IMG/VR virus record: IMGVR_UViG_3300005512_000040
Span: 1 to 57,231 of that record
Length of the DNA stretch: 57,231 bases
Strand: one strand, 5' to 3'
Origin: a virus
Lineage: Duplodnaviria; Caudoviricetes
Part shown: positions 5,088-53,501 of the stretch, piece after piece
Layout of the letters: every line of letters starts with the position of its first letter
Numbering within the stretch: the first letter of the stretch is position 1
Position numbers and translations under genes: made by a program
The notes under the pieces: generated by a model
What the model was told of the DNA's origin: nothing
What the model saw: only the letters and a program-made list of their open reading frames with translations
Database searches by the model: none

Positions 5088-5148
5088 CGCCAACGCCGGG
5101 GGTGTGCCTCGGCGCGGTAGCGACGTAGGCACCAGCCCTTTGTTGGGC
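5088..5148 (-). repeat. attC-like site (61 bp)
   Basis: CGCCAAC-GCCGGG-GGTGTGCCT...AGGCACCAGC-CCTTT-GTTGGGC; loop homologous to the site at 43847. Confidence 0.85.
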
Positions 5149-5199
5149 TTTTCTGGATCGGAAACAACGCCGGACAATCCGGCAGAAAGGTAGGACAAG

Positions 5200-6018
5200 A
5201 TGAAGGTTACAGAACTGGCGAGTGGAATTGCGCACGACGGGCGCACAAAGGTAGAGCGTTACGAGTGGGATGCGCTGAAGGCGCGATCCAAGCACATGCG
5301 AATCAAGATCGCAGACCTCAACGTCGATGATTACCAGAGGGGGGAGGCGAAGCGCGGATCAACAATCCAAAAGGCAAAACACTGGGACCATGCCGCCGCC
5401 GGTGCTGTTGTCGTCGGCCAGCGTTCCGACGGATCGTTTTGGGTGGTTGACGGATTGCAGCGCACGCTGGCAGAAGCATTGCGGGGCGACATTGATGCCG
5501 TTGACTGCATGGTGTTCCAGTCAGAAGGAACAGAACATGAGGCCAGAGTTTTCCAACTCTGCAACCTCGGAAGAATCCCGGTTGACGCAATACACAAGTT
5601 CCGCGTTGCCGTGAAGGCCGGAGACACTGTTGAATGCGCCGTTCAGAATTGGGTTGTGGCGAACGGTTTGCGGATTGCGGGGGATAAGGGCAAGAATGAG
5701 ATCGGCTTTCCGTCGTACGTCGTTCAGTTCTGGAAGGCAAACACGGATGCGGTCAAGCGCGCGCTGTTGTTTTCCATGCGCGTCGGTGACGGGGAAATGT
5801 GCTCCGAAGTATTCAAGGGCGCATACCTGCTTATCACACGGGGCGTTGATGTTGAAAAATATGAAACCAGCATCATCAAGCGAGGTGGGCACAAGCGATT
5901 ACTGCGCGACATCAACGCCACGGCTATCGAGGCGGGCGTCAGCAAGAACCTTAACGTATGCGCACGCGGCATACTGTCGAGCATCAACTATCGCCGCAAG
6001 TTACGGGTGGAGATTTGA
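5200..6018 (+). CDS. ParB/Srx-like N-terminal domain protein (DUF6551-like), cassette-borne
   Basis: LNVDDYQR...VVVGQRSDGSFWVVDGLQR motif. Confidence 0.7.
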   Translation: MKVTELASGIAHDGRTKVERYEWDALKARSKHMRIKIADLNVDDYQRGEAKRGSTIQKAKHWDHAAAGAVVVGQRSDGSFWVVDGLQRTLAEALRGDIDAVDCMVFQSEGTEHEARVFQLCNLGRIPVDAIHKFRVAVKAGDTVECAVQNWVVANGLRIAGDKGKNEIGFPSYVVQFWKANTDAVKRALLFSMRVGDGEMCSEVFKGAYLLITRGVDVEKYETSIIKRGGHKRLLRDINATAIEAGVSKNLNVCARGILSSINYRRKLRVEI

Positions 6019-6019
6019 A

Positions 6020-6075
6020 GCCCAACGTGCCCGTGAGCGGACCCGAAGGGGTACGCTCCACGGGGCTTGTTGGCA
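6020..6075 (-). repeat. attC-like site (56 bp)
   Basis: GCCCAAC...CGTGAGCG...CGCTCCACG...GTTGGCA. Confidence 0.85.
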
Positions 6076-6093
6076 ATTCTGGAGGCAACAGCA

Positions 6094-6366
6094 ATGGATA
6101 GGCTATACAGCGTAACGATCGAATATCTTGGGATCAAGAAGCAGGACAAGTTCCCGGCGTCCACTATCTGCCTCGGCAAAGACGGTGCATTCCTTGTGAT
6201 GGACGGGCAAGGCGAATCTGTCCGATTCGTTGCCAAGGATTGCAAGGTCGAACAGATCGCCGCGCATGTGATTATTCTGCACGGGTACACCGACAAGCCG
6301 CGACACATCACGGCGTACTGCGTATATGCCAACGCCGAGGGTCAGTTTTCGGCGGAACGACGATAA
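6094..6366 (+). CDS. Cassette hypothetical protein
   Basis: GGAGG RBS; ends inside the attC at 6327. Confidence 0.7.
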   Translation: MDRLYSVTIEYLGIKKQDKFPASTICLGKDGAFLVMDGQGESVRFVAKDCKVEQIAAHVIILHGYTDKPRHITAYCVYANAEGQFSAERR

Positions 6367-6386
6367 ACTGCACCCTTTTGTTGGGT
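6327..6386 (-). repeat. attC-like site (60 bp)
   Basis: TGCCAAC-GCCGAG-GGTCAGTTT...AAACTGCACC-CTTTT-GTTGGGT. Confidence 0.88.
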
Positions 6387-6404
6387 GCGAGATTGGAGGA
6401 CAAC

Positions 6405-6680
6405 ATGAGACTGGATGAAGTTGATAGAGCATGGATGATACGAGGCGCACACCACTTGGCAGCACGGCACCGCAAGCGGCATATCCCGCTGTGGTCATTC
6501 GTTGGGGCAGTGTGCTCCGTGGGCAGCACGTCGGCAACGATGATATGCCGCGAACTCGGATGGGACCCAAACGCGCCTGCGGACAGGGAACTTCCGTCAC
6601 CCAACGCTCCGGGTGAGGGTCGCGGTATTCCGCGTACCCTCGACCCGATTGTTGGCAGTTCTTCGGAGGGCACGGAATGA
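6405..6680 (+). CDS. Cassette hypothetical protein
   Basis: GGAGG RBS; reads through the attC at 6599 and overlaps the MTase start (ATGA). Confidence 0.7.
   Translation: MRLDEVDRAWMIRGAHHLAARHRKRHIPLWSFVGAVCSVGSTSATMICRELGWDPNAPADRELPSPNAPGEGRGIPRTLDPIVGSSSEGTE
6599..6657 (-). repeat. attC-like site (59 bp)
   Basis: ACCCAAC-GCTCCG-GGTGAGGGT...ACCCTCGACC-CGATT-GTTGGCA. Confidence 0.88.
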
Positions 6681-7375
6681 AACCATACTATCAAGATGAC
6701 GCGGTAACGATATACAACGGGGATTGCAGGGAGATTCTTCCGGCTATGACAGGGAATGTTGACATGGTTCTGTCTGACCCTCCCTACTTCGTCCCAGCAA
6801 ACTCCTACACTGGGAAGCGTGGCGAAGGCTATCACCGCAAGATGCTCGGCGACACTTCCATAATGGGTATGGCATTCGAGCTTGTGTTTGCGCACTACGT
6901 TGACCGTCTCGTATCTGACACCGGAACCTACTACGTCTTTTGTGACCCGCAATCATATCCGCATGTTTGGGCGTCTCTCTATCCGCTCTGCCATTCGACC
7001 AGGATGCTGGTATGGGACAAGATGACATCGTTCAACGGGTACACATGGCGCAGACAGTTCGAGTTGATAGCGTGGGCGAGTAAGCCGAACGCGCCGCGAA
7101 TCCCTACCGGGGACGGCGATGTGTTGCGGTGCCGGGCTGTGAAGGTTGGCGACAGGGAACACCCAGCAGAGAAGCCGCACGAACTCTTGCGGCAGTTGAT
7201 CGGCAAGCACGCTCCGACGTTGGTTCTTGACCCGTTCTGCGGGTCTGGCGCGGCGGTGGTTGCGGCCAAGACGTGCGGTGTACGAGCCGTGGGCATAGAG
7301 ATTGAGGAGCGTTACTGCGAACTGGCAGCGCGGCGATGCTCGCAGGAGATGGACTTTCATACTGCCAACACTTGA
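6677..7375 (+). CDS. N4/N6 DNA methyltransferase (beta class), cassette-borne
   Basis: DPPY...HPAEKP...LDPFCGSG. Confidence 0.92.
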   Translation: MKPYYQDDAVTIYNGDCREILPAMTGNVDMVLSDPPYFVPANSYTGKRGEGYHRKMLGDTSIMGMAFELVFAHYVDRLVSDTGTYYVFCDPQSYPHVWASLYPLCHSTRMLVWDKMTSFNGYTWRRQFELIAWASKPNAPRIPTGDGDVLRCRAVKVGDREHPAEKPHELLRQLIGKHAPTLVLDPFCGSGAAVVAAKTCGVRAVGIEIEERYCELAARRCSQEMDFHTANT

Positions 7376-7411
7376 ACTGTGCGGCTCGTCCGCACGAGTG
7401 CTTGGTTGGAA
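7363..7411 (-). repeat. Minimal attC-like site (49 bp)
   Basis: TGCCAAC-ACTTGA-ACTGTGCGG-CTCGT-CCGCACGAGT-GCTTG-GTTGGAA. Confidence 0.85.
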
Positions 7412-7424
7412 ACTGGAGGACAAA

Positions 7425-7610
7425 ATGGACATTGGAGAGATCAGAAACCGAGTGATGCAGATGGAATCCGAGGACGTGCGGAACGAGTTGGCCGCACTGT
7501 GCGACGAATGCGCGAAGACCCGCGTTACGCTCGCCATGCTGATCGGATGGCTACAGCGGGAGTTGGGCGAGCATAACGTCAAGACCCTGTTTGACCAGCT
7601 CGGACAGTGA
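7425..7610 (+). CDS. Cassette hypothetical protein
   Basis: GGAGG RBS; lies between cores at 7405 and 7615. Confidence 0.7.
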   Translation: MDIGEIRNRVMQMESEDVRNELAALCDECAKTRVTLAMLIGWLQRELGEHNVKTLFDQLGQ

Positions 7611-7686
7611 GTGTTTCCAACCCCAAGCACGGCGGCGCTTGCGTCCATTGATGCGGGAGTTGGCGGAGGCAAGAAGTGGACAATTT

Positions 7687-7821: not shown

Positions 7822-7836
7822 GCTTTTTGACACACA

Positions 7837-7867
7837 GAAAGGCCCAACCGCAATGGCTGGGCCTTTC
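7837..7867. terminator. Hairpin between convergent units
   Basis: GAAAGGCCCA...TGGGCCTTTC. Confidence 0.6.
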
Positions 7868-8042: not shown

Positions 8043-9113
8043 TCATTCTGCCGCTCCTTTCGTCCATTCCGGCAATGCTGAGATTGCCCGTTCTGTCGCC
8101 TCTACCCCTATCCGCGTGTAATGGTCCATGATTGCCTTGCTGCCATGCCCGACGATCCCAGCCACAACGCTATCCGGCACGCCAGACTCGCGCATTTTCG
8201 TGACAAACGTGTACCGGAAGCTGTGCGACCCCACCATGCCATCCGTCGTGCTGCTTATGTGTAGCGTACGAAACAACCGCGAAAACGACCGATACACATT
8301 GCCATTGCGCGCCATGTAATCACTCGCCAGACCTGGAATCGCGTATTCTCGACCCATTCCGCACGAAACAAGCCGATCCCACAGCGCACGGTGCATACCC
8401 AACTCCACGCGCCTCCCCGTTTTCGCCTGTATGCGCCACATTCTGCGCCGGTCTAGGTCGATTTGCTTGCTGGGCCATGTCAGCGAATCGCCTACCCGCT
8501 GCCCCGTGTATGCCAAGACCATGCAGCACGTCAACAGTTCGCCGTCCGCCGCTCCCAGAATCCGCGCCAATTCCTCGTCCGTGAATGGCCGGTGTCCTCG
8601 CGCTGCCTTCGTGCTGAGTGTCGCGCACCCGTCAAATGGTGTCTTTACCGTGCGATTCCCGCTGCCCGTGCGTAATGCCGCCCTCAACACCTGGCGGCAC
8701 GCAGTTACGGCCAAATTGTGATAGCTGGCAGACTTGTCTAGGCTATCTAGCCACGCATCCGCGTCTGCCTCGCCTATTTCGTTGCAATTCGTGATTCCCG
8801 CCCGCTGGCACCACTCCGCAAATGCCGCCCACGCGCTGCCGTACGATCTGATAGTGTTTTCCGACGTGTTAGAACGCTTTAAACCGTCCTTAAAGGCGAT
8901 CCAAGCACTTGCGACGGGTATGAGTGCGGGTGCGGCGTCCGGCGGCTTTAAGGTGCATTTAATCGCCTCTAGCTGGTGCCACAGGTCGGCGCGCATGGAT
9001 TCGGCGCGCTCTGGGTCGTCGGTGTCAAGCGGGACGGAGAAGCGATACTCTACAGCATACCGCCCGTCCGTCCGCTTGTGTAGCCTGCCGCTGCCTTTGC
9101 GTGTGGTTGTCAT
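8043..9113 (-). CDS. int: Tyrosine recombinase / phage integrase
   Basis: YTGQR, QAKTG, HSFR, VGH, HY catalytic motifs; SAM-like domain (SENTIRSY); N-terminal arm-like segment. Confidence 0.92.
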   Translation of the reverse strand: MTTTRKGSGRLHKRTDGRYAVEYRFSVPLDTDDPERAESMRADLWHQLEAIKCTLKPPDAAPALIPVASAWIAFKDGLKRSNTSENTIRSYGSAWAAFAEWCQRAGITNCNEIGEADADAWLDSLDKSASYHNLAVTACRQVLRAALRTGSGNRTVKTPFDGCATLSTKAARGHRPFTDEELARILGAADGELLTCCMVLAYTGQRVGDSLTWPSKQIDLDRRRMWRIQAKTGRRVELGMHRALWDRLVSCGMGREYAIPGLASDYMARNGNVYRSFSRLFRTLHISSTTDGMVGSHSFRYTFVTKMRESGVPDSVVAGIVGHGSKAIMDHYTRIGVEATERAISALPEWTKGAAE

Positions 9114-9120
9114 TGGTTTT

Positions 9121-9318
9121 CTACTCGCTCGGCCACTCGTCACCGTCAACTTCTATGCCACACTTGCCCGCCATGTCAAGCGCACGGCATACCGCAAACA
9201 TGATGCTACCGCTGCTCGCCACAAGCCGCAGCCCGCCGTCCACATACACGCGCGACTGCCACTCGCCGGTAGCCAGGCGGGTAAGCGTGCCCGTGCCTTT
9301 CTGTATTGTCGTTGTCAC
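9121..9318 (-). CDS. Small protein resembling the integrase N-terminus
   Basis: GTG start after AAGGAG; TTTIQKGTGTLTR vs integrase TTTRKGSGRLHK. Confidence 0.55.
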   Translation of the reverse strand: MTTTIQKGTGTLTRLATGEWQSRVYVDGGLRLVASSGSIMFAVCRALDMAGKCGIEVDGDEWPSE

Positions 9319-42205: not shown

Positions 42206-42254
42206 AACAACGACTCACCGACCAGACGTGCCGCTGGTCAGTTCGGTGTTGGCC
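42205..42254 (+). repeat. Unbulged 50-bp terminal site (attI position)
   Basis: AAACAAC-GACTC-ACCGACCAG-ACGTGCCG-CTGGTCAGT-TCGGT-GTTGGCC; homologous to the site at 44965. Confidence 0.7.
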
Positions 42255-42820
42255 TCTACCTCGTTGCCCCACACCGTCCAGCCGGGGCGGGCGCGGCGGG
42301 CGAACAGTTCAAGCCGTGGCCCGTCGCTCACCGTCTCGATCATGTCCTGAAAGAACTCCGGTTTCGTGCTGTGCGAGTTGTGCGGGCGTTTCACCTGCCA
42401 CCACGTCGAGTCCACGCGCCGCTTGCCTTGCGGCATCCGGCCCTTGCGCCCCAACAACAGGAACTCGCTCGTCGGGCAGAACAGCCCGCCTTGCCCCAGC
42501 CCTCGCGGTCGCTTGCACCAGGTCAACGCCTGGCAATACCGGAAGCCCCACGCCTGCATGACGCTGAAGGCTTCCGGCAGGTACTTCTGCGTTGTCCACA
42601 GGTACAGGTCGCAGTCATCAGCGGCGCATCCGGCAACCGGAAGCGCGGCAATCTCGGAAACCGGCATGGTCGGATAGGGCATGTCGTATTCGTGTCCGTT
42701 CGGTCTGCTTGCCGGAGTTGCGCGGCCCCACTTTCCGTATTGCCACGGCGGGTCTGCCACAATCGTCCGGAACCGACCGGAAGGCCAACCAAGAGGTGCA
42801 GCCGATTCGCTATCGCTCAC
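42215..42820 (-). CDS. MT-A70 family adenine methyltransferase, cassette-borne
   Basis: IVADPPW; YPTM; LYLWTT; WGFRY; HSTKP; RLELFAR...WGNE. Confidence 0.92.
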   Translation of the reverse strand: MSDSESAAPLGWPSGRFRTIVADPPWQYGKWGRATPASRPNGHEYDMPYPTMPVSEIAALPVAGCAADDCDLYLWTTQKYLPEAFSVMQAWGFRYCQALTWCKRPRGLGQGGLFCPTSEFLLLGRKGRMPQGKRRVDSTWWQVKRPHNSHSTKPEFFQDMIETVSDGPRLELFARRARPGWTVWGNEVEANTELTSGTSGR

Positions 42821-42841
42821 GGCTGACCTCCATCGTTCGGC
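42783..42841 (+). repeat. attC-like site (59 bp)
   Basis: GGCCAAC-CAAGA-GGTGCAGCCG...CGGCTGACC-TCCATC-GTTCGGC. Confidence 0.88.
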
Positions 42842-43095
42842 AACTCGTGAATACGCAGTGCCCACATACCATCGTCTCGCTCGTGCCACCTGCCAATGTT
42901 GATGCTCTGTCCGCCGTCGGTCTCGACCTCGACGAATCGGCCCGCTTCCGGCCCCGGAGGTCCATCGAAGACGATGTTGATTGCCGAGCAAGCGGATGGA
43001 GAACTACACGATGAAGGACGCAATCTGCATCCTCCCGGTCTCCCACATTCCGAACCCGTCCACTCCGTGCAATCGTTGTCGATGTCACACTTCAT
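42817..43095 (-). CDS. Cassette hypothetical protein
   Basis: Starts inside the attC at 42983; ...FDGPPGPEAGRFVEVE... Confidence 0.7.
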   Translation of the reverse strand: MKCDIDNDCTEWTGSECGRPGGCRLRPSSCSSPSACSAINIVFDGPPGPEAGRFVEVETDGGQSINIGRWHERDDGMWALRIHELPNDGGQP

Positions 43096-43121
43096 CGTGA
43101 GTCTCATCCTTTCCGTTAGCT
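42983..43121 (+). repeat. Long attC-like site (139 bp) with mutated R'' (AGC)
   Basis: GCCGAGC-AAGCG-GATGGAGAACT-ACACGATGAAG...CTTCATCGTG-AGTCTCATC-CTTTCC-GTTAGCT. Confidence 0.8.
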
Positions 43122-43375
43122 GCATACAAATGTTTCTCAAGTGATTCCCACTTGCAGGTACACGGCCCCTCTGCATCGTACCACTCATTGCACGGCTTAC
43201 AGTGATCACCGTAGAAAAGCAGCATTCGCACTAAGAGACGATTCTCTGCTTTGAGTTCGTCGATACTGCTAGCAGCCAACAACGGCTCGGACGGTACAGG
43301 AGAAACCGCGCTCAGGCAGTCCTCACAGAATCCGTCTTGCAAAGGTTTATTGTGAATCTTACACATCATCGTCAT
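43085..43375 (-). CDS. Cassette protein, Cys-rich
   Basis: RBS and start lie inside the attC at 43274. Confidence 0.7.
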   Translation of the reverse strand: MTMMCKIHNKPLQDGFCEDCLSAVSPVPSEPLLAASSIDELKAENRLLVRMLLFYGDHCKPCNEWYDAEGPCTCKWESLEKHLYAANGKDETHDEV

Positions 43376-43411
43376 GTCTGTTTCTCCTGCCCGTCAAGCC
43401 GAGCGTTCGGC
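43274..43411 (+). repeat. Long attC-like site (138 bp)
   Basis: AGCCAAC...GACGGTACAGGAGAAAC...GTTTCTCCTGCCCGTC...GTTCGGC. Confidence 0.8.
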
Positions 43412-43569
43412 ACTTCCGTCGATGTCGGATAGACGATTTCTGCCCCGCACTCTCTATCAGCGCACACCAAACGGTCATTATCCCAACCGCCGCCGTACAT
43501 CGAATGCATAATCTCACCGCAAATGTCACACGTCACCGGCGATTGCTTTGCCTTTTCAAACTGCGTCAT
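43372..43569 (-). CDS. Cassette Zn-ribbon protein
   Basis: CDIC...CADREC. Confidence 0.7.
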   Translation of the reverse strand: MTQFEKAKQSPVTCDICGEIMHSMYGGGWDNDRLVCADRECGAEIVYPTSTEVPNARLDGQEKQT

Positions 43570-43826
43570 GCGTCACCACCTGCCGAACAATCAGATTCGG
43601 CGGACGGAGTACCGCCGCTGATCTGCGCGTTGGCAACATCGGCCTTGCGGTCGAGCACCACAATGCACTCGTACTGCTGGACGTGGTATATGTCGCCATC
43701 GTCATGCCATACAACCCAAGCGTCACCCGTTGCACACGGGACGTGCTTGACTGTGCCTTCCAGCGTTTCGCCACCCGCCCAACACACCCGTACTCTGTCG
43801 CCCACTCTTGCGCCTGTATCAGCCAT
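43566..43826 (-). CDS. Cassette hypothetical protein
   Basis: GGAGG RBS; C-terminus encoded by the attC at 43582. Confidence 0.7.
   Translation of the reverse strand: MADTGARVGDRVRVCWAGGETLEGTVKHVPCATGDAWVVWHDDGDIYHVQQYECIVVLDRKADVANAQISGGTPSAESDCSAGGDA
43582..43635 (+). repeat. attC-like site (54 bp), near-identical to 46297
   Basis: GCCGAAC-AATCA-GATTCGGCGG-ACGGAGTACCG-CCGCTGATC-TGCGC-GTTGGCA. Confidence 0.88.
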
Positions 43827-43846
43827 TTTCGTATCCTCCATTCAGT

Positions 43847-43907
43847 TGCCAACAAAAGGCTTCAGCTTACGTCGCTATCGCGCCGAAGCTGAGCCTCGGC
43901 GTTCACA
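43847..43907 (+). repeat. attC-like site (61 bp)
   Basis: TGCCAAC-AAAAG-GCTTCAGCTT...AAGCTGAGC-CTCGGC-GTTCACA. Confidence 0.9.
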
Positions 43908-44125
43908 TTCAAGCCGCGTTGCAACCCCATATAGCGCGCCTTGTTTGTCACCGCTGACAGCCTCCTGCCTAGGTACTTCGCAAGCTCTTTAGCGGAAACC
44001 TTGCCGTAGTATTGCCGCATTACGGACTCGTCATTCTCCGTCCACGGCACGCTGCGAGGCTTCGTGGTCCTTATCAGTTCGTCAAGCTCTGGAACGCTCA
44101 CAACGCCGGATTGACAGCTTTTCAT
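43862..44125 (-). CDS. Small HTH/Myb-like protein
   Basis: WTENDE...ELAKYLGR..SAV..KARYMGL. Confidence 0.7.
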   Translation of the reverse strand: MKSCQSGVVSVPELDELIRTTKPRSVPWTENDESVMRQYYGKVSAKELAKYLGRRLSAVTNKARYMGLQRGLNVNAEAQLRRDSDVS

Positions 44126-44931
44126 AGCACCACCGCCTTTGCTTTCTGCGACTCAATCTTGACAGTTTCGGCATGCCAGTCGAACGCGCCATCGTCGGCA
44201 ACGTCAAACACCGTCACGCCCCAATCCACGAGGCCGGTGCATTGCCGCGCACCGTACTTCGTGCCCATCCCCTGCAATGCTGGCAGCGTCATTGCGACCC
44301 AACCAGGGCCACCGCAGAACGCGTGATAGTGGACGTGTCCGCGCAAAAACACGTTGGCGTCAGGCTGTAGCGCGTCCTCGTGGTTCCACAGGATGTTCCA
44401 CATGCGCTCCTTGGCGGTTGCTGTGTGGCGTCCGTGCGGGATCGTGCTGCTTCCGATCTTGTGTTTGAGGTCGAATACGCAGCCGTTTACGTCAACCCAC
44501 TCGTGAGCGCCAATCTTCTTGAATCCCGCACGCTCGGCAATGCGGTTCTCCCAATCCTCATCGTTGCCGGTATGGTATCCGGTGCCGTATACTCCGACCC
44601 ACTCAAAGCCGCGACGTGCATTGAGAAGCACGGCGTTAAGGCACTCAATCGCCATGTCTGACTGTTCCTCGCGGTCGGTCGTGATTAGCTCTGTGCCACC
44701 GCTCTTGCGTCCGGTGCCGTCGATTCCGTCGCCGACGTACAGCCCGAAGTGGAACGGACCAAGCTCGTCAATCATGCGCTTGTAATGGTCCCACAGCTGC
44801 CGTTGAAGACGCGCCCACTTGTTGTGTTTGGTTGTCGTGCCATTGACCTCTTTTGTCTGCCATGCGGGAGGCGTCAACCCGCAGGCGTGTCCACAGTGTA
44901 GGTCGCTTACTACAATTCCTCGTTTCTTCAT
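44122..44931 (-). CDS. Metallophosphoesterase
   Basis: SDLHCG, GDGIDG, GTGYH, KH, GHVH. Confidence 0.85.
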   Translation of the reverse strand: MKKRGIVVSDLHCGHACGLTPPAWQTKEVNGTTTKHNKWARLQRQLWDHYKRMIDELGPFHFGLYVGDGIDGTGRKSGGTELITTDREEQSDMAIECLNAVLLNARRGFEWVGVYGTGYHTGNDEDWENRIAERAGFKKIGAHEWVDVNGCVFDLKHKIGSSTIPHGRHTATAKERMWNILWNHEDALQPDANVFLRGHVHYHAFCGGPGWVAMTLPALQGMGTKYGARQCTGLVDWGVTVFDVADDGAFDWHAETVKIESQKAKAVVL

Positions 44932-44964
44932 ACTTGCGCCCCTTTCTCCGTTCGCTTTTCCTTC

Positions 44965-45014
44965 CGCCAACGATTCATTGACGGGACGTGCCGCCCGTCA
45001 ACTCGGTGTTGTGC
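44965..45014 (+). repeat. Unbulged 50-bp terminal site (attI position)
   Basis: CGCCAAC-GATTC-ATTGACGGG-ACGTGCCG-CCCGTCAAC-TCGGT-GTTGTGC. Confidence 0.7.
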
Positions 45015-45199
45015 CGCTTGTTGGGTTTACAAGACTCTCTGGCTTCAATGTCGAACTCAACGTCGAAGCGCACGGACTCACGCTTCTCCCATTCTTCGCG
45101 GTCAACCGACATATCACGGTATGCCTTCAGTAACCGTTGCAGGATCTTCAGGCTGTCCGTCGACAGTTCATCCACATCAACAATGATCTCGTTTTCCAT
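44975..45199 (-). CDS. Cassette hypothetical protein
   Basis: AAGGA RBS; MENEIIVD start. Confidence 0.65.
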   Translation of the reverse strand: MENEIIVDVDELSTDSLKILQRLLKAYRDMSVDREEWEKRESVRFDVEFDIEARESCKPNKRHNTELTGGTSRQ

Positions 45200-45226
45200 C
45201 TGGTTCCTTTCCTGCCTTGCCGGGAA

Positions 45227-45286
45227 ACCCAACAAGACAATTCACGCTATCGGCGTTCCGCCGAATCGTGATTGTTAGCGTTGTGC
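45227..45286 (+). repeat. attC-like site (60 bp)
   Basis: ACCCAAC-AAGAC-AATTCACG...CGTGATT-GTTAGC-GTTGTGC; loop homologous to the site at 6327. Confidence 0.85.
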
Positions 45287-46284
45287 GTCAAAGGCAACAG
45301 CCCCTGCCGCAGTTCGTTTTCCAGCCGCGCCCGCGCAGATTCAAACTCGCGCTCGTCCTTTTCCACGCCGACAAACCGCCGCCCGGTCTTGATGCACGCC
45401 AGCCCGGTCGTGCCCGACCCCATGAAGCAATCCAACACCGTATCGCCCGGATTGGTCGTTGTCTCGACGATTCTTTGCATGAGTTCCAATGGCTTCGGCG
45501 TGGCGTGCCCGTTGGCTTTCGCGGGCGGGTATTGCCATACGCTCGACACTTTGCCGGGGTTGTTGAACGTCGGGCGGAGATGTTCGTACTCGCGGCGCAG
45601 GTCGTCGTACTCGCGGCGCAGGTCGTCGTAAGTTCTCTTTAATGGTAGGATTTTCCCCAATTCCGAATAGAGTTGCTTGTCGCATAAATCCCACCGCCGC
45701 CCCTTATTCCACCCGATTTTATACGACGCATGAACACGGACGCTCTCTTCGGTGGTATAGCGCCCGTCTCGCCTAAACACAGCATGCACGTCCTCTTTTG
45801 TTCTTCCGCTCAAATCAAAGGCAGCAAGAAAATACTCTCGCAACGGGCGACAAATGGCGTTCTGATCTGTCCACTGCCCGTCGTCAGCGTGGTAGACGAT
45901 GTACTCGGCCAGCTTCGCGAATGAACGCAGTAGTGGGCTATCTCGCGCGGCATACAACTGCGAATGTGCTTGCTCTGGTGCGTATTTATCCCACGTCACC
46001 CAGTTTTGCATCGGTCGCCCGTGCCGCTCGATGATTCGCGCAATGTCGGCCAGCACCAGCGGCTCAGAGTGGAAACACCAGAACGCACCTTGCCGCTTGC
46101 ACCCCCTTGACGCCGCCGCAATCCACGACTCGCACCATTCGAGGTAGTTGGGTATCTTGTCCCATGCCGCCTTGCCAATGTTGTACGGCGGGTCAGTCAC
46201 AACGGCGTCGCACTCCACTGGTAGCACGTCTAGGCAGTCGCCACGGATGATGGTCACATCGTCAGATAGTTTTACCGCTTTCAT
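45247..46284 (-). CDS. N4/N6 DNA methyltransferase, cassette-borne
   Basis: TDPPY; HATPKP; LDCFMGSGTT; YDDLRRE heptad repeats. Confidence 0.92.
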   Translation of the reverse strand: MKAVKLSDDVTIIRGDCLDVLPVECDAVVTDPPYNIGKAAWDKIPNYLEWCESWIAAASRGCKRQGAFWCFHSEPLVLADIARIIERHGRPMQNWVTWDKYAPEQAHSQLYAARDSPLLRSFAKLAEYIVYHADDGQWTDQNAICRPLREYFLAAFDLSGRTKEDVHAVFRRDGRYTTEESVRVHASYKIGWNKGRRWDLCDKQLYSELGKILPLKRTYDDLRREYDDLRREYEHLRPTFNNPGKVSSVWQYPPAKANGHATPKPLELMQRIVETTTNPGDTVLDCFMGSGTTGLACIKTGRRFVGVEKDEREFESARARLENELRQGLLPLTHNANNHDSAERR

Positions 46285-46286
46285 GA

Positions 46287-46778
46287 TCAATCCCTCGCAC
46301 AACAATCAGATTCAGCGGACGGAGTACCGCCGCTGATCTGGGCGTTCGCAACATCGCACGGCTTCCCGCACTCGGTACACTCGTGCCAGCGCGTTACGTT
46401 GCCGCGCACGACAACAGGCGCGTGACAGCAGGTGGAGGACTTGCCATCAATGCAGATTGCCGCACTTGCGTCCCAACCCTTGCGCGCCGTAACGTCGTTC
46501 AGCCACGCAACAAGCTCGTCTACGCTCTTGATTACCACAGCCTGACCGCGCCACGCCTCGTGCCACTCAACCTGCAACTCGTTCAGTTTCGACTTGCTCG
46601 GGCACTTGCTGCCGTCCTTTACTTCAACCAGGTAGTTGCGCCCGCTGTGCCCGACCAGCAAGTCGGGCACACCAGCACCGACAGCCTTAAGGTCGCACAC
46701 CGTCGCACCAACCTTGCGCAGTACGTCCACAATCTGCTTGTGATTGGCGTCTGGTTTGCCGTACTTCCTTGCGTTCAC
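46287..46778 (-). CDS. VRR-NUC-like nuclease with Cys-rich C-terminal extension
   Basis: DANHKQIV..LR..G...GVPDLLVG...LVEVKDG. Confidence 0.85.
   Translation of the reverse strand: MNARKYGKPDANHKQIVDVLRKVGATVCDLKAVGAGVPDLLVGHSGRNYLVEVKDGSKCPSKSKLNELQVEWHEAWRGQAVVIKSVDELVAWLNDVTARKGWDASAAICIDGKSSTCCHAPVVVRGNVTRWHECTECGKPCDVANAQISGGTPSAESDCCARD
46297..46350 (+). repeat. attC-like site (54 bp)
   Basis: GCACAAC-AATCA-GATTCAGCGG-ACGGAGTACCG-CCGCTGATC-TGGGC-GTTCGCA. Confidence 0.88.
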
Positions 46779-46978: not shown

Positions 46979-47391
46979 GCGGCGTCCTCCACATCGTCAA
47001 GCGGCTGTACGGTGTAGTCTGCGCGCTTGCTTCGTGTCGTTGTCAGTTTCAGGCTCAGCGGTTCGTCAATGCCGCTTACGTGCGATATGCGGATGCCGCC
47101 TACCTCGACGCCGCCGAACTTCACGGTCGGATCGCCGTACAACGTCATGCGTTGCCCTACCCAATCCTTGCCCTTGTCGCCCCATGCCGCAATCAGGACG
47201 CGGCGCATAGACTTGCACGGTCTGAATACGCGGTCCATTTCTGCCAGCACCACGTCAACGGGCTGCTCTGCCGCGCCTTGTCTGAGCGTGCTGACCGTCA
47301 CTGTCAACGGCGCTTTTGCCACGTCGTCAAAGTTCAACTGATCCGACTTGGGCCGAATCGTGTCTCTCAGGCTCATTGCTTTCTCGGTCAT
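46975..47391 (-). CDS. Conserved phage recombination-module protein (KSDQLN..DD type)
   Basis: PKSDQLNFDD...PCKSMRRVL...WG...GGIRISH; adjacent to the exonuclease. Confidence 0.7.
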   Translation of the reverse strand: MTEKAMSLRDTIRPKSDQLNFDDVAKAPLTVTVSTLRQGAAEQPVDVVLAEMDRVFRPCKSMRRVLIAAWGDKGKDWVGQRMTLYGDPTVKFGGVEVGGIRISHVSGIDEPLSLKLTTTRSKRADYTVQPLDDVEDAA

Positions 47392-48200: not shown

Positions 48201-48223
48201 GCTTCCGCGCCTCCCTCCGCGCC

Positions 48224-48493
48224 TCACTCCGTGCTTTCAATCCTATCGTCGCCGCTCTCGTGCCTATCCCACATTACGTCCTCGCTGTCAAGCTCGCGCC
48301 AGTTCGTGCGCCTGTGCGCACCAGTACCGATTGACGACCAGCCAGACTCCGGCGTGGCTTCTACACGCGCTCCCCAACGCTTGTTGTTGCGAGCCTCGGT
48401 CACTCTGCACGCCTTGCGGTTGCAGTATCGCGCGAATGTCTCCGTGATAAACCGCCGTCCGCAGTGCTGGCATGTGACGTGTCGCATTATCAT
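48224..48493 (-). CDS. Zn-finger hypothetical protein
   Basis: CQHCG..F.....YCNRKAC. Confidence 0.65.
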   Translation of the reverse strand: MIMRHVTCQHCGRRFITETFARYCNRKACRVTEARNNKRWGARVEATPESGWSSIGTGAHRRTNWRELDSEDVMWDRHESGDDRIESTE

Positions 48494-48788: not shown

Positions 48789-49021
48789 CCGTGCAGCACC
48801 TTTGCCGCGACGGTCTGCACGTCGAACCGCAGCTTGGCCACGCGGTCGGTTTCGTCGATGGTGCATGGCGCGGCGATGGCACGCACGTCAATCATTACGT
48901 CGCCAACGTCGAGCGGTATGCAACACGCAACGCCCTTGCTGCCGTCAAACCTCTTGAACTCGAATGGCTTTCCTCGGTGCAGCCTGTTGCCAGCCTCGAC
49001 CATTTTGTTTGCGTCAGTCAT
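48758..49021 (-). CDS. Hypothetical protein
   Basis: AGGAGG RBS; ends inside the attC (WNGKDDTPK). Confidence 0.6.
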   Translation of the reverse strand: MTDANKMVEAGNRLHRGKPFEFKRFDGSKGVACCIPLDVGDVMIDVRAIAAPCTIDETDRVAKLRFDVQTVAAKVLHGWNGKDDTPK

Positions 49022-49126
49022 TTGGTTGTCCCTCCTGTCAACATGCGCAAACCATAGCACAACTGGCCGCCCGTGCAAGCGAAAAGTTTGCCGAAAATCA
49101 CGACGAAAAAAAATGCAGAAAGGGGG

Positions 49127-49156
49127 TTGACAACATGCAGCGGCGTGGGCTATTGT
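49127..49156 (+). promoter_or_regulatory. Sigma70-like promoter in the divergent control region
   Basis: A-tract, then TTGACA-N18-TATTGT. Confidence 0.55.
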
Positions 49157-49567
49157 TCGCGTGTCGACTGGGAGAAGCAGCAAGGAGGAGGCACCATGAG
49201 CACGACCGCAGAAAACAAGCAACAGCATCCTCCCGAGTGGGTGGAGCGCGCCATATTCGTTCTTGCGTTTGTCGGCGCGGTCTGGTGGGTTTGCGAAGTG
49301 GCGGCGCGTATGTTCGTGCCGTGGAACTGACGAGGGAGGATTGGTGTGGCAAACACTAGGAGGACCGACCATGCGACGGCTAATCCGAAAAGCAATACAG
49401 TGGTTCGAGATGGCGAGGGGCCTATGGTATCTCGCAAACCTGCCAACAGGCGAGTGGGAGTGCGCGGACGGCAGCACGCCAGAGGGCGCGTACAGGGGAA
49501 AGCAGTGCGGGGATGTGTGAGAACGCTGGCATTGAGCGGACAATGAAGCCGCAGAAGGAGGACTGAC

Positions 49568-49825
49568 GTGGACAACAACGATGGCGCGGCTTCATTGGTA
49601 CGCTCGGATGCTTTGTTGGGCTCCCTGTTCGACGGAGCGGCATACGTCGGCATTCACAAGAACGCAGCAGGGCGCATCACGCTTGTCGTCAATCACGGCG
49701 ACGGCTCCATGCGGACCTCGTGCAGCAAGAAGGGCCTCAGCTACGCGGACAAGCTGATTGAGTGCCGCAACCGTTTGTCCGAGACGCCCAACGCCGGGAG
49801 TCACCGGCAGGAGGAAGCGCGATGA
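49568..49825 (+). CDS. Cassette hypothetical protein
   Basis: AGGAGG and GTG inside the attC at 49518. Confidence 0.65.
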   Translation: MDNNDGAASLVRSDALLGSLFDGAAYVGIHKNAAGRITLVVNHGDGSMRTSCSKKGLSYADKLIECRNRLSETPNAGSHRQEEAR

Positions 49826-50103
49826 GGGAATGGGTTTGCAAACGATGTGGAACGTTCAACAGAGGAGTCCCGCGTTGCGAGAGATGTTGCGCGCTTCCTC
49901 CTGTACGGTCGGACTCCTTGTTCGATGTCCTGGTGGCTATTGTCAACACGGCGCAGACATGCCCCGACCGCTGCATGGCTGACGTGTGCAACGACAACTT
50001 CGCCGTGCATGGCGTGAACCTTCGGGCCGAGATGACCGACAACGAGGACGCGCCGGTCAGGATCGAGAGGACATCGAACGACAGCAATGAGCGGCAGCTT
50101 TAG
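49822..50103 (+). CDS. Cassette protein with N-terminal Zn-ribbon
   Basis: WVCKRCG...CERC encoded in the attC loop. Confidence 0.7.
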   Translation: MREWVCKRCGTFNRGVPRCERCCALPPVRSDSLFDVLVAIVNTAQTCPDRCMADVCNDNFAVHGVNLRAEMTDNEDAPVRIERTSNDSNERQL

Positions 50104-50157
50104 CTGTACGCTCCATTGGCCTTGTTGGGCAATCCCAGCGAGGCCGGAAAGGACAAG

Positions 50158-50451
50158 ATGAGACTGAGACGACAGATTAGACGGATGATGAGCCCGGTTG
50201 ATATTCTCCAATTCAGCCAGTTTACGATCGACTGGTTACAAGAGTTAGACGAGGCTGACGCGCACGGCGATACGACCGGCGACGAGCAGACTGACAACCT
50301 CGCCCTTGCCTACGAAATCGACACGATCCGCGAAGTCTTGCGCTACGGCAGCGACAAGGCGCTGTTCGATATGATGGCGGCATACGCACGGATCTGTATG
50401 CCCAACGATGATCCTCACGTTTCCGACGTGAGCACAGCGAACAAAGGATAA
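50158..50451 (+). CDS. Cassette hypothetical protein
   Basis: Ends PNDDPHVSDVSTANKG inside the attC. Confidence 0.65.
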   Translation: MRLRRQIRRMMSPVDILQFSQFTIDWLQELDEADAHGDTTGDEQTDNLALAYEIDTIREVLRYGSDKALFDMMAAYARICMPNDDPHVSDVSTANKG

Positions 50452-50606
50452 CGTGGAGGATTTTGTTGTGTGTCCGCGATGCGAAGAATGGAGCTTGCCA
50501 ATGTGCCTGATACGGACAACAGATGACGCATTGGTTGGCATGGGAATATCCGTAGCCCATGCATCGGGTGTGACTCCCGGCGCGGACTCCTTTTGTATAC
50601 ACAACG
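50400..50606. repeat. Duplicated cassette, copy 1
   Basis: 207 bp identical to 51502-51708 except one base seen (50408/51510). Confidence 0.95.
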
Positions 50607-50644
50607 TCCGGCCTGACGCGCCGGGCGAGAAAGGTGCGACATGA
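50453..50644 (+). CDS. Cassette peptide, copy 1
   Basis: GTG start inside the attC; CPRC motif. Confidence 0.6.
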   Translation: MEDFVVCPRCEEWSLPMCLIRTTDDALVGMGISVAHASGVTPGADSFCIHNVRPDAPGEKGAT

Positions 50645-50982
50645 CCAAGGCGGCTATACCCGGTCGCGTCGAGGCCGTTGTTCTCCACCTGGTTCTGACG
50701 CACCATTGGTTCGACGAGATGATCGCCGGCCGCAAGTGGACCGAGTACCGCAAGGTTACGCCACACTGGACGCGGCTGATATGGGACCGCCGCGACAAGA
50801 TCACGCACGCCCGGTTCAGCCGGGGCTACACGGCGCAGCGGATCATCCGCCGCGTGGAGCAGATCACGATAGGCCCGTGCCCCTACGACGGGTGGCCGGG
50901 GCAATACTACCGCATAGACCTCGGGGAGGTCCGTGTGGAGAACGACCGTCTTCACGGTCGAGGAAAGAGCGATAGCGAATGA
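50641..50982 (+). CDS. ASCH/PUA-like domain protein, paralogue 1
   Basis: LHLVL..HWFDEMIAGRKWTEYR...FSRGY. Confidence 0.8.
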   Translation: MTKAAIPGRVEAVVLHLVLTHHWFDEMIAGRKWTEYRKVTPHWTRLIWDRRDKITHARFSRGYTAQRIIRRVEQITIGPCPYDGWPGQYYRIDLGEVRVENDRLHGRGKSDSE

Positions 50983-51188
50983 CGAGTACCGTGCAAGACT
51001 TGGTTGTGCCCCTGTGGCCGTCCCGTTGCTTCTGGGGCTTCTGCCGGCACGAGATTCGCAAAGGTCTTATGTTTCGCTACTGGATCACGCTTCCGGCGAT
51101 CTGGCAGCGCGAACTGCAATTCCGCCGCGAGCTGACAGAGTGTTTGAATGGGCACAACGATTTGAATGAGGGGCGCAATGAAGGATAA
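50979..51188 (+). CDS. Cassette hypothetical protein
   Basis: ATGA-coupled inside the attC at 50937. Confidence 0.6.
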   Translation: MTSTVQDLVVPLWPSRCFWGFCRHEIRKGLMFRYWITLPAIWQRELQFRRELTECLNGHNDLNEGRNEG

Positions 51189-51313
51189 ATGTTCCGCCAA
51201 TGCTGATGAACAAGCCATGGGCTTGAGGCAGGACGGTCGGTCAGTTGACCAGCCTTCATTGCGTACCCTCCATTCTCTTGTTGGGCATCCAAATCAATGA
51301 AAGGAACACGACC

Positions 51314-51553
51314 ATGCTGATTACGATTCCACTGAGACGAACGTATCTTGTACTGAGCACCTGCAACCGATTCCTGCACGTCTACCTGTCGCGTAACGCT
51401 ACGCCGTGGCATCACTCCCGCGTCAGCCTGTGGGGGCGGCGCAAATACAACCGCTACGCAGCGCACGTCGGGGACGACGGTTGCTGCTGCGAATCCTGTA
51501 AGCCCAACGCTGATCCTCACGTTTCCGACGTGAGCACAGCGAACAAAGGATAA
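51314..51553 (+). CDS. Cassette hypothetical protein
   Basis: AAGGA RBS; ends PNADPHVSDVSTANKG. Confidence 0.6.
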   Translation: MLITIPLRRTYLVLSTCNRFLHVYLSRNATPWHHSRVSLWGRRKYNRYAAHVGDDGCCCESCKPNADPHVSDVSTANKG

Positions 51554-51708
51554 CGTGGAGGATTTTGTTGTGTGTCCGCGATGCGAAGAATGGAGCTTGC
51601 CAATGTGCCTGATACGGACAACAGATGACGCATTGGTTGGCATGGGAATATCCGTAGCCCATGCATCGGGTGTGACTCCCGGCGCGGACTCCTTTTGTAT
51701 ACACAACG
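51502..51708. repeat. Duplicated cassette, copy 2 (ORF 51555-51728)
   Basis: See copy 1. Confidence 0.95.
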
Positions 51709-51724
51709 CGGAGGTGACTGGACG

Positions 51725-52045
51725 ATGAGAGCGACAGCGAACAGCGGTACAGTCCACCGTCTTGTTCTCCACCTTGTCCTCACGGGAAGGTGGTTTGACA
51801 TGATGATGGGCGGTGTCAAAGACGTTGAGTATCGGGCAATCACGGAGCACTGGACGCGGTTGATTTGGAATCGCCGCGACAGGATCACACACGCCCGCTT
51901 TGCACGCGGGTACACGAAGGAAACCATCTTGCGTCCAGTGCGTCGCATCGACATTGGATCGTGTCCGTATGACGGATGGGATGGCGATTACTACAGGATT
52001 CACATGCCACCGATACAGGTGGAGAACGATGGGCGTCAGCCTTGA
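51725..52045 (+). CDS. ASCH/PUA-like domain protein, paralogue 2
   Basis: LHLVLTGRWFDMMMGGVKDVEYR...FARGY. Confidence 0.8.
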   Translation: MRATANSGTVHRLVLHLVLTGRWFDMMMGGVKDVEYRAITEHWTRLIWNRRDRITHARFARGYTKETILRPVRRIDIGSCPYDGWDGDYYRIHMPPIQVENDGRQP

Positions 52046-52104
52046 GCGAATAGCGAATAGGCTGGACGCCTTTGTTGGGCGGCCGGTCAGAAAGGGAAAC
52101 AACG

Positions 52105-52350
52105 ATGAAACTGTGCAAAGACTGCAAATGGCGTGACGGACACAGGTGCGTTGCGCCGCAAAACTCTTCCGGAGTTGACCCGGTTGACGGCGGCAAGGCG
52201 TCTGGATGGATTATGACGTGCCAGGCGCAACGCACTGGAACGTTTACGGGGTGGTTTTGGTGCCGCGTAACAAGGCTGTGCGGGAAAGAGGCTAGATGGT
52301 TCACGCCCAACGTAGCGCTCACGAGCGCCGACGAAGGAGGCGTATCGTGA
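52105..52350 (+). CDS. Cassette Cys-rich protein
   Basis: MKLCKDCKW...C...CGKEARWF. Confidence 0.7.
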   Translation: MKLCKDCKWRDGHRCVAPQNSSGVDPVDGGKASGWIMTCQAQRTGTFTGWFWCRVTRLCGKEARWFTPNVALTSADEGGVS

Positions 52351-52544
52351 AGCGCATGGTTGTGCGTCTGCTTTGCCGCCACGACTGGCGCGAACATACC
52401 GTTCTCGGAGTTGGGGATCACGAGTTTTCCGATCTACGCTCTTGCACCAAATGCACGGCCAGCAAGCTCTTGTTTTCTGGCACGCGGAAACAGTGGAGAC
52501 AACATCACGGCTACGATACGCACAACATTGCAATATCGAGTTAG
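52347..52544 (+). CDS. Cassette small Zn-binding protein
   Basis: AGGAGG and GTG inside the attC at 52305; LCRHDW...CTKC. Confidence 0.65.
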   Translation: MKRMVVRLLCRHDWREHTVLGVGDHEFSDLRSCTKCTASKLLFSGTRKQWRQHHGYDTHNIAISS

Positions 52545-52607
52545 GTTTCTTGCTGAACATGCGCAACCATCTACACGGCAACAGGCTACATAGAATGAGA
52601 GGGCAAC

Positions 52608-53501
52608 ATGGGAGATAAGGCACACGTGACGAATGGCGGCGGGAGGCCCTGGCGCATCCTTCTGGACGTGGACGGGGTACTGGCTGACTTCTACGGCGGG
52701 GCGTGCAGGGTGCACGGGGTTTCCAGGGAATCGCTCCCGGTGGGCCAGTGGGAGATGAGGCACGGTATGGGCATAAGTGAAGCTGCCTTCTGGGAGCCGC
52801 TGGACAACTACGACTTCTGGGTGGGGCTGCAAAAATACCCGTGGGCCGATAGTCTTGTGGCCTGCATGAAAACGGTTGCGGACGTGACGTTCTGCACCAC
52901 GCCATCCGTATCGTCGGACTGCCACAAGGCTAAGATGGACTGGATTCGTAAGCACTTCGGGGATGACGCCAAGGTGATGCTTGGCTCGCAGAAGTATCTC
53001 ATGGCCGCTCCGCGCCACATCCTGATTGATGACTACCACGCCAACGTGGACAAGTTCATTGCCGAGGGCGGCAAGGCCATCCTGTTTCCGGCCAGATGGA
53101 ACAAGTTACATGCAGTCCAAAAAGACAATGTTGATCACACCATCGACATCCTGAGTGCCATCATACAGGAATCCACGACCCCGCCCCCAATTTTCCCCGA
53201 GGGGGCGAGCGAGCGGCATGAATACCCTGTGTTCACGGGCCTGCTGGCTTATTTCCCGAGGGCCTGCGCGGCGGTGGCGAACGTGAGTTTCATTGGAAAT
53301 GAGCAGCATCAGCCGGGAGAGCCCATGCACTGGGCCAAGGAAAAGAGCATCGGCACAGGGGACCAGGTGGTCAGGCATACCATGCAAGGGGTGCTGGAGG
53401 GGTCCGCGTATCATTTGGCGCAGGCCGCTTGGCGGGCACTGGAACTGCTGGAGCGCAAGCTGTGCGGGATGCCGCCGTTCGGGGATCAACGTAGTGTTTG
53501 A
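52608..53501 (+). CDS. HAD 5'(3')-deoxyribonucleotidase-like domain fused to a DUF5664-like (dATP/dGTP diphosphohydrolase-like) domain
   Basis: LDVDGVLADF...CTTP...K..W...LIDD; then FPRA..AVA.VS..GN.QH.PG...W...RH...HLAQAAWRAL. Confidence 0.78.
   Translation: MGDKAHVTNGGGRPWRILLDVDGVLADFYGGACRVHGVSRESLPVGQWEMRHGMGISEAAFWEPLDNYDFWVGLQKYPWADSLVACMKTVADVTFCTTPSVSSDCHKAKMDWIRKHFGDDAKVMLGSQKYLMAAPRHILIDDYHANVDKFIAEGGKAILFPARWNKLHAVQKDNVDHTIDILSAIIQESTTPPPIFPEGASERHEYPVFTGLLAYFPRACAAVANVSFIGNEQHQPGEPMHWAKEKSIGTGDQVVRHTMQGVLEGSAYHLAQAAWRALELLERKLCGMPPFGDQRSV

Follow-up and report, generated by a model that had tools for sequence, protein, structure and literature searches.

A 213-nt tract that occurs twice in the IMG/VR virus record IMGVR_UViG_3300005512_000040 is probably one integron-type gene cassette, present in two copies through site-specific cassette duplication. 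The record, a linear metagenomic sequence of 57,231 nt estimated to be ~70% complete, was analysed whole and is referred to below as the window. Copy A (50394..50606, + strand) and copy B (51496..51708, + strand) were identified by a repeat search within the window and by pairwise alignment. They are 99% identical with a spacing of 1102 nt, and a search of the whole record places the repeat at just these two positions. A 213-nt match at this identity cannot arise by chance. Mismatches are found only near the left edge, at 50399 (T in copy A, A in copy B) and 50409 (A versus C), and to the right of both the identity is uninterrupted over 197 bases (50410-50606). An earlier sequence-only reading had held that 50400-50606 equals 51502-51708 with one substitution, and that identity begins at a core, GCCCAAC (50400-50406), and stops at a second core and one further base, ACACAAC+G (50599-50606); both statements are borne out by the alignment.

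Upstream, the two copies are flanked by unrelated open reading frames (ORFs), neither of which has a family match. The ORF of cassette c3 (50158..50451, + strand) has its final 17 codons inside copy A, and that of cassette c7 (51314..51553, + strand) has its final 17 codons inside copy B; the two terminate in ...PNDDPHVSDVSTANKG and ...PNADPHVSDVSTANKG. The repeat itself carries a small Cys-rich ORF, which encodes 58 amino acids in copy A (50468..50644, + strand) with the tail VRPDAPGEKGAT following an Asn, and 52 amino acids in copy B (51570..51728, + strand) with the tail AEVTGR following the same residue, so that the C-terminus is ...CIHNVRPDAPGEKGAT for copy A and ...CIHNAEVTGR for copy B. 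The translations thus confirm the earlier claims that one cassette peptide has two C-termini and that two unrelated upstream genes have gained a common tail. Downstream, an 18-nt gap is followed by diverged genes of the phrog_625 family, of unknown function, at 50641..50982 (+ strand, cassette c5, family match E 8.1e-11) and 51725..52045 (+ strand, cassette c9, E 6e-10). The second is recognised by alignment as a diverged paralogue of the first, ~65% identical to it (a value obtained by subtracting the repeat from a 446-nt high-scoring segment pair of 81% identity).

The core words form both ends of imperfect hairpins of ~55-75 nt, some reaching ~140 nt by way of a long loop, when short stretches are folded; folding of the entire 213-nt repeat gives modest z-scores (-2.2 and -2.6). 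Copy A begins with attC-type hairpin #4 (50400..50471, + strand), which has the 5' box GCCCAAC, the 3' box GTTGTGT and an extrahelical G on the 3' arm, and which is supported by a covariance model, R1 (50401-50471, 25.5 bits, E 1.1e-4), by a rule-based scanner (10/10 pairs) and by folding. This hairpin contains the stop codon of the upstream ORF together with the ribosome-binding site (RBS; GGAGGA) and the GTG start of the small ORF. Its copy, hairpin #7 (51502..51573, + strand), is found by R1 (51503-51573, 31 bits, E 3.6e-6) and by the scanner. The next hairpin in each case has the 5' box ACACAAC and the 3' box GTTCTCC. Hairpin #5 (50599..50686, + strand; long loop, 10/10 pairs in the scan, supported by folding) contains the phrog_625 start codon (50641) in its loop, and hairpin #8 (51701..51770, + strand; 9/10 pairs, weak R1 match with E 0.74) contains the second phrog_625 start codon (51725).

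Counted from AA/C to AA/C (the stroke marks the inferred crossover), the region 49518..52526 (+ strand) is an array of 11 cassettes of 199-350 nt with one ORF each. The repeated unit is cassette c4 (50406..50604, + strand), which has 199 nt, runs from the C of GCCCAA/C to the AA of ACACAA/C and consists of hairpin #4 and the small ORF. Cassette c8 (51508..51706, + strand), also of 199 nt, is its copy with one difference (51511 C versus 50409 A). The other cassettes are c1 (49524-49791), c2 (49792-50078), c3 (50079-50405), c5 (50605-50942), c6 (50943-51157), c7 (51158-51507), c9 (51707-52026), c10 (52027-52310) and c11 (52311-52525). Hairpin #2 (49786-49926, with a 2-nt bulge) and the last box, GCACAAC (52520-52526), were recognised by visual inspection. 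A second array lies at 5088..7620 (+ strand; hairpins at 5092, 6024, 6331, 6603 and 7367), with a ParB-like gene and a DNA methyltransferase among its cassettes. A third, at 42783..46349 (- strand; hairpins at 42787-42837, 43278-43407, 43586-43631, 43851-43903, 45231-45282 and 46301-46346), includes DNA methyltransferases.

The hairpins belong to a family that can be recognised across the window. The 5' half reads nnnAACG, 2-3 unpaired nucleotides, a 5-bp stem ending in T, a 5-6-bp stem and a variable loop; the 3' half reads T, the 6 nt of the second stem, one unpaired base, A with 4 nt of the first stem, 2-3 unpaired nucleotides, and T or G followed by GTTGnnn. R1 was built from six window hairpins and run with filters off. 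It gives 16 matches in the window at E ≤ 0.015, five of which are training sequences. All lie on the strand of the local genes (+ strand: 5089, 6021, 6328, 6600, 7364, 50074, 50401, 50938, 51503, 52022 and 52306; - strand: 42783, 43582, 43847, 45227 and 46297), and none falls between 7411 and 42783. The scan rule (AAC, two 5-bp stems with at least 9/10 pairs, a T-A pair, one unpaired base, GTT) also captures members with long loops and returns 23 elements in the window versus 0-2 in five shuffles. Of these, 21 are in the early-gene blocks, every one pointing the same way as the early genes; the remaining two, at 16612 and 33654 in the structural block, correspond to the background rate. At the level of words, GCCCAAC is enriched (21 copies versus 9.6 expected, a count never reached in shuffles), with 8 of the copies in 49.6-52.3 kb, while ACACAAC by itself is not (15 versus 10.7). 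Exact occurrences of TTGTTGGGC on the + strand begin at 49613, 50122, 51278 and 52072.

A structure alignment was made of the 24 best elements, from the window and the contig L029 (see below). In it, AAC and GTT are invariant and paired in 24/24, compensatory changes are seen in 10 of 11 pairs of the inner helix, and 97.3% of the paired cells are pairs, versus 31-46% when the partners are slid. The span from AAC to GTT is 41-130 nt, with loops of 3-4 nt to ~100 nt, and 2-3 nt per side are unpaired between the R box and the inner stem. Counted from the 3' end of the GTT box, the unpaired base of the 3' arm occupies position 16 in 21/24 elements (it is G in 10, A in 7 and C in 7), and inward of it a 6-nt stem is followed by T in 21/24. 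Screening 3' arms against upstream sequence by duplex energy gave poor discrimination. Searches of 49000-53000 against Rfam returned just two sub-threshold chance matches, neither of them relevant. In 49000-52700 there was no excess of promoters (one sigma-70-like versus 1.7 expected) or terminators (six terminator-like versus 3.2 ± 2.0 expected), and none was tied to the hairpin family.

The strongest indication of how the arrays were built comes from the boxes. In integron arrays the crossover falls inside the box, and thus the box ahead of a site is part of the cassette before it and the true partner of the 3' box ends the site's own cassette. The complement of each 3' box was compared with 5' boxes at the four variable positions, in 95 pairs from the window and 61 related metagenomic loci. 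The 3' box of a hairpin complements the 5' box of the next detected hairpin in 58/95 pairs but its own adjacent 5' box in 3/95 (random boxes, 4.6%). In the window alone, 14/18 pairs are perfect, and hairpins overlooked by the scanner account for at least two of the four misses: #2 (49786), which supplies the GCCCAAC expected for hairpin #1, and probably another near 44970-45026. The repeat follows the same pattern: c4 and c8 end in ACACAAC, the exact complement of the GTTGTGT of their own hairpin, while the box ahead of that hairpin (GCCCAAC) is not complementary. Likewise, the 3' box of hairpin #5 complements GGAGAAC at 50937-50943, the end of its own cassette, and that of hairpin #8 complements GGAGAAC at 52021-52027. 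In Tetrasphaera phage TJE1, used as a control, box permutation is found in 2/2 pairs on the bottom strand. This is the classical circular-permutation signature of cassettes. Because next-box matches (58/95) so outnumber own-box matches (3/95), the crossovers that build the arrays are placed inside the boxes, and neither folding in place, as RNA or DNA, nor homologous exchange within conserved linkers explains the pattern.

The geometry of the elements is that of integron attC sites. The recombinogenic form of attC is a bottom-strand hairpin in which only the AAC of the R' box (RYYYAAC) and the complementary GTT are conserved, and it is cleaved between A and C. The arm facing AAC carries extrahelical bases, the first usually a G (position 16) and the last a conserved T (23 or 24), with a 6-bp stem between them, and there is an unpaired central spacer, a variable terminal structure and a length of 57-141 bp (as given in passages of Nivina et al. 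2016, PMC5027507). The window elements share the AAC/GTT hairpin of the R box, the extrahelical bases opposite AAC with their 6-bp spacing and T, the unpaired spacer, the variable terminal loop, and lengths within ~50-140 nt. The 6-bp spacing comparison is independent of the numbering origin in Nivina 2016, which those passages do not give. The unpaired spacer is shorter, at 2-3 nt versus the 5-6 stated for attC, and the first extrahelical base is a G in only 10/24 elements, while it is usually G in attC. Like bacterial integrons, the arrays have circularly permuted cassettes, a probable A/C crossover and duplicates within arrays. Unlike them, they have no IntI, no recognisable attI and no Pc promoter; they carry RBSs and start codons inside the sites and occur in two orientations in one genome.

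A direct comparison with a known phage attC cluster was possible in TJE1 (HQ225832), where the three best R1 matches (244-292, 1016-1074 and 1462-1518; E 0.04-0.1) lie on the minus strand, opposite the genes, where orf1, orf2 (a methylase) and orf3 have their 3' ends. For that end of the genome, Qi et al. (2023, PMC9892861) report four ORFs and a cluster of three attC sites, and they show that two TJE1 sites recombine with attI1 under IntI1; the R1 matches are apparently this published cluster. In 10,705 phage genomes the same study found 17 clusters of attC sites lacking integron integrases (CALINs), none with fewer than two sites and the one in TJE1 with three. The window resembles these phage CALINs in having arrays of attC-type hairpins between small genes, no intI, and DNA methyltransferases among the cassettes. 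It is unlike them in density, with 21 sites in the one contig, about one per early gene, and 139 elements in 61 related contigs. It also differs in orientation: the bottom strand of TJE1 is antisense to the genes, which is canonical, whereas in the window the attC-bottom-strand-like geometry sits on the coding strand, so that the site precedes the gene. The genes with family matches (two methyltransferases, the ParB-like gene and the two phrog_625 genes) are all on the same strand as the fold and downstream of the site.

Two other kinds of phage repeat are comparable. The PeSLs (promoter/stem-loop motifs) of T4-type phages are composite promoter-terminator motifs that act via homologous recombination, according to the parts consulted of Arbiol et al. 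(2010, PMC2839356) and Comeau et al. (2014, PMC4122927). As far as those parts describe them, PeSLs and the window hairpins are alike in being short repeated motifs beside novel small ORFs in plastic phage regions, tied to the insertion, deletion or replacement of genes; they are unlike in that the window has no promoter or terminator enrichment and its box permutation points to crossovers at a fixed dinucleotide. The start-associated sequences of Cluster K mycobacteriophages (SAS and ESAS) are reportedly conserved repeats, some with inverted-repeat extensions, close upstream of many non-structural starts, the SAS being said to be a 13-bp motif at the RBS with function unknown and no cassette boundaries. 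A literature search returned no description of the window hairpin family or of inverted phage cassettes, the nearest being Qi et al. 2023.

The box pattern is compatible with a cut at AA/C on the coding strand or at G/TT with the other strand active. AA/C is favoured because the coding strand is the one whose extrahelical bases face AAC, because the duplicated tract spans the interval between consecutive AACs (a G/TT cut would make it straddle two cassettes), and because the peptide tails switch directly after the Asn codon AAC in three contexts. The third of these contexts is P0001, a 56-amino-acid JGI metagenome protein that is 87% identical across the cassette part, has the same GTG start called, and continues after the same Asn with another tail (...CTHN-DKAQLRSKVE). 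Together, the duplicated cassette and this third context point, at the level of sequence, to cassette movement. The unit predicted earlier, in which an attC-type site precedes its gene and crossovers fall at AAC cores, is supported by the geometry, the box permutation, the fit of the tract and the third context. Between contigs, homology spanning a hairpin and one flank only involves the downstream flank in six cases and the upstream flank in none; two of the six are the window repeat and three come from one group of near-identical contigs, leaving about two that are independent. One of these is the pair L063 and L078, contigs that are 99.7% identical across 991 nt and diverge one base ahead of an AAC. 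Short contigs of relatives, from four sequencing runs of different habitats, break at boxes (49621, 49785-7, 50406/9, 51005 and 51705), which is a lead only.

Under the favoured reading, c4 would have been excised as a circle and re-inserted through recombination between sites, giving the copy at 51508-51706 ahead of another hairpin. As the crossover would fall inside reading frames, the upstream ORF at each site would gain the tail encoded by hairpin #4, and the cassette ORF would take a differing tail from whichever hairpin comes next. The event would presumably have been performed by an integron-integrase-like enzyme from the host or from the missing ~30% of the phage. The near-identity of the duplicate suggests recent movement, and both the recency and the direction of the duplication are inferred.

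Related hairpins are spread in metagenomes. A 21-mer from the 5' arm of hairpin #2 is present in 59 JGI metagenome contigs, and R1 finds 80 elements at E ≤ 0.05 in these 59 contigs and L030. The scan of the 61 related loci finds 139 elements in 179,063 nt versus five in shuffles, with a median spacing of 330 nt, and of the 33 sequences with at least two elements (window included), 28 have every element on the same strand. Replication and modification genes of phage type are carried by the eight longest loci, for a 5'-3' exonuclease, a DnaB-like helicase, a primase zinc finger, methyltransferases, an HNH nuclease and an RNA ligase; among 69 ORFs tested from these loci there is no integrase. In the subfamily of 49786 type (49786-49926 in the window, L031-L089 among the loci), the arms are conserved across 42 distinct variants; within the loop lie an RBS, an ATG and 20-30 codons that vary, often with a CxxC...CxxC (zinc-ribbon-like) pattern, and the 3' arm is complementary to the RBS. 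A 37.9-kb viral contig, IMGVR_UViG_3300034378_000015 (L003/L029), has at least 8 R1 matches and 17 elements by scan. It has no gene in common with the window region by tblastn, and the two have junction pieces of 25-79 nt in common at 86-100% identity; one stretch in L003 is 100% identical to bases 51704-51728.

Other searches returned little. No match to 49500-52400 was obtained by blastn among 50,697 phage records. IMG/VR searches seeded with proteins gave one locus for the small ORF, none for the phrog_625 gene and three for an NT5C-like gene, of which only L003 was related, through the junction pieces. A 23-nt pattern from hairpin #4 had no IMG/VR matches. The pattern GTACSCTC-N6-9-TTGTTGGGC had 22 IMG/VR matches, which showed no other similarity to the window and were taken as chance. 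A tblastn search of 38 window ORFs against the 61 loci found mainly relatives of the methyltransferases and no second copy of c4.

Homologous recombination or gene conversion is an alternative that we regard as unlikely. An old tandem duplication of two genes, the small ORF and phrog_625, would have diverged, and the part with the small ORF would later have been homogenised by phage functions, the tract stopping at conserved boxes merely because these are the last shared bases. Such an origin would account for the position of both copies directly before paralogous genes, an arrangement that random insertion would give about once in 10-20. It would also account for the similarity that continues 6-12 nt, and loosely ~17 nt, to the left of the left crossover (CTGTA[T/A]GCCCAA), and a gene for an exonuclease VIII-like protein (phrog_412, 47388-48227) is present in the phage. 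The small ORF of either copy stops in an ATGA that overlaps the start of the next phrog_625 gene (50641 and 51725), despite the differing hairpin arms between. This overlap fits conversion; it may also reflect translational coupling, and selection for coupling may be the reason that both copies precede paralogues. However, the left flanks are unrelated genes and there is no homology for ~70 nt to the right of the tract, where hairpins #5 and #8 belong to different subfamilies, with an 18-nt gap and little identity; thus a conversion tract would lack the flanking homology that it needs. The tract is moreover exactly one unit of a system defined independently by the box test, and the third peptide context, P0001, breaks at the same codon. 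A partial tandem duplication homogenised by conversion had been our first reading, and was dropped on the box permutation and this third context.

The repeat could also be an assembly artefact, a distinctly improbable explanation in which the 197-nt identical core is a collapsed graph node and the contig threads two strain variants or a loop. The contig is metagenomic, linear and ~70% complete, and the identical core exceeds the usual k-mers. In the sequencing-run search, four runs share only 0.05-0.08 of the sampled words and the matching pieces are short contigs of relatives. A chimera joined at a repeat, however, gives one copy and not two; unique sequence flanks both sides of each copy, two base differences occur near the left edge, and the 1102-nt intervening stretch would have to link to the repeat on both its sides. 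It is very improbable that the hairpins act instead on the transcript, in processing or in translational control of early mRNA, or as PeSL-like regulatory cassettes, and serve as recombination linkers only incidentally. Consistent with such a role, all are co-oriented with transcription in three separate gene blocks, many hold an RBS and start codon in arm or loop, and the 49786-type 3' arm pairs with the RBS in 42 distinct variants; a G-T pair beside the AAC/GTT stem in 19/24 elements is possible on the coding strand only. Folding in place nevertheless needs matching boxes, and these match the next hairpin, 200-1000 nt away, in 58/95 pairs and the hairpin's own in 3/95. The lack of promoter or terminator excess in 49000-52700 and of an Rfam family match, and the attC geometry, also speak against a regulatory role.

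Several observations weigh against site-specific cassette duplication and the attC assignment on which it draws. The placement before paralogues and the shared bases to the left of the crossover are not readily explained by random insertion. The structure and the scan rule were derived from the same sequences on which the alignment was fitted. The RYYY/RRRY consensus is matched by some boxes only (GCCCAAC/GTTGGGC), and GGAGAAC and ACACAAC depart from it. The genes are on the bottom-strand-like strand, downstream of the site, which is the reverse of canonical cassettes and of TJE1. R1 found nothing in the array of Vibrio phage MK672802, which carries a complete Vibrio-type integron, and thus the general likeness to attC draws on the geometry and one phage. 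No integron integrase was found in the window, where the sole tyrosine recombinase scores 29 bits on TIGR02249 (cut-off 265), in two related viral contigs (G001 and G002), or among 69 ORFs of the eight longest metagenome loci. The sequencing-run search found no reads spanning both copies. Finally, two comparisons between contigs are uninformative about the crossover: 21 cases in which the hairpin alone is shared and both flanks vary, many of them from one subfamily, and a histogram of break-points over all contigs (starts at AAC, ends at GTT), in which the conserved 49786-type hairpin that served to retrieve the contigs predominates.

The tyrosine recombinase of the window (8043..9149, - strand) is of the ordinary phage integrase type and is not an integron integrase. 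Its only PDB match is XerA, and it has 46 residues where Vibrio IntIA has 87, too few to accommodate the IntI-specific insertion. The + strand array ends with the box TTCCAAC (7614-7620), and between it and this gene lies a tRNA-like 3' fragment (7745-7870; T-arm-like GGTTCAAATCCCGC) with a terminator-like hairpin. ARAGORN called no tRNA at 7745-7870, and the segment is possibly the phage attachment site; the integrase that adjoins it looks like an ordinary integration enzyme. In a single metagenome contig, the 3' end of a tRNA abuts a GCCCAAC box directly. The single genome contig matched by the 21-mer, from an Acidimicrobiia metagenome-assembled genome, gives no ground for naming a host, as one match is at chance level by estimate and the locus is without elements. 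R1 found nothing in that genome among the 150 of 2271 candidates scored, and the IntI model gave Xer-like matches only, all under cut-off.

The window phage is a temperate, tailed phage with an integrase, a primase/helicase, SSB, three DNA methyltransferases and the exonuclease VIII-like gene. Its structural block extends from ~14 to 42 kb and contains a tRNA-Met gene (16861-16934). An HNH endonuclease at 1612-2232 matches the NCBIfam IscB and Cas9d models in its HNH part below cut-off (60 bits versus 175), and is probably an ordinary phage HNH. The methyltransferase ORF at 42215-42991 (- strand), as listed, begins 68 codons before the conserved domain and reads through hairpin 42787-42837; its true start probably lies just past this hairpin. 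The arrays diverge near 49.5 kb, with 42-49.5 kb on the - strand and 49.5-57 kb plus 0-7.6 kb on the + strand, the bottom-strand-like strand being the coding strand in each arm. If replication starts near 49.5 kb, this strand would be the lagging-strand template in both, an orientation of the bottom strand that favours attC folding according to the sections of Loot et al. (2017, PMC5371416) used here.

The phage thus seems to shuffle accessory genes as integrons do. Integron cassettes rank among the main routes by which bacteria exchange genes. The origin of cassettes and their attC sites is described as largely unknown in those sections (Loot et al. 2017, PMC5371416). Clusters of attC sites in phages are already known; what is new here is their density, inverted orientation, embedded translation signals and spread in metagenomes. 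Reported phage attC clusters are rare and small, while the entire early gene set of the window phage is organised in attC-bounded units. If confirmed, site-specific cassette movement would also explain how phage mosaicism can arise through cuts at a fixed dinucleotide, with new C-termini for neighbouring proteins. A wider proposal can be made only tentatively, and it is doubtful on present evidence: that an environmental phage lineage runs its own integron-like system, in which nearly every early or accessory gene is a cassette with a coding-strand attC-type site upstream. The same tentative standing applies to its further elements, that the RBS and start are built into the site and that shuffling is carried out by a recombinase other than classical IntI or by a host IntI acting on phage DNA. 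If true, integron-type cassettes and attC sites would have a large and unrecognised reservoir in such phages, which may also be one birthplace of cassettes.

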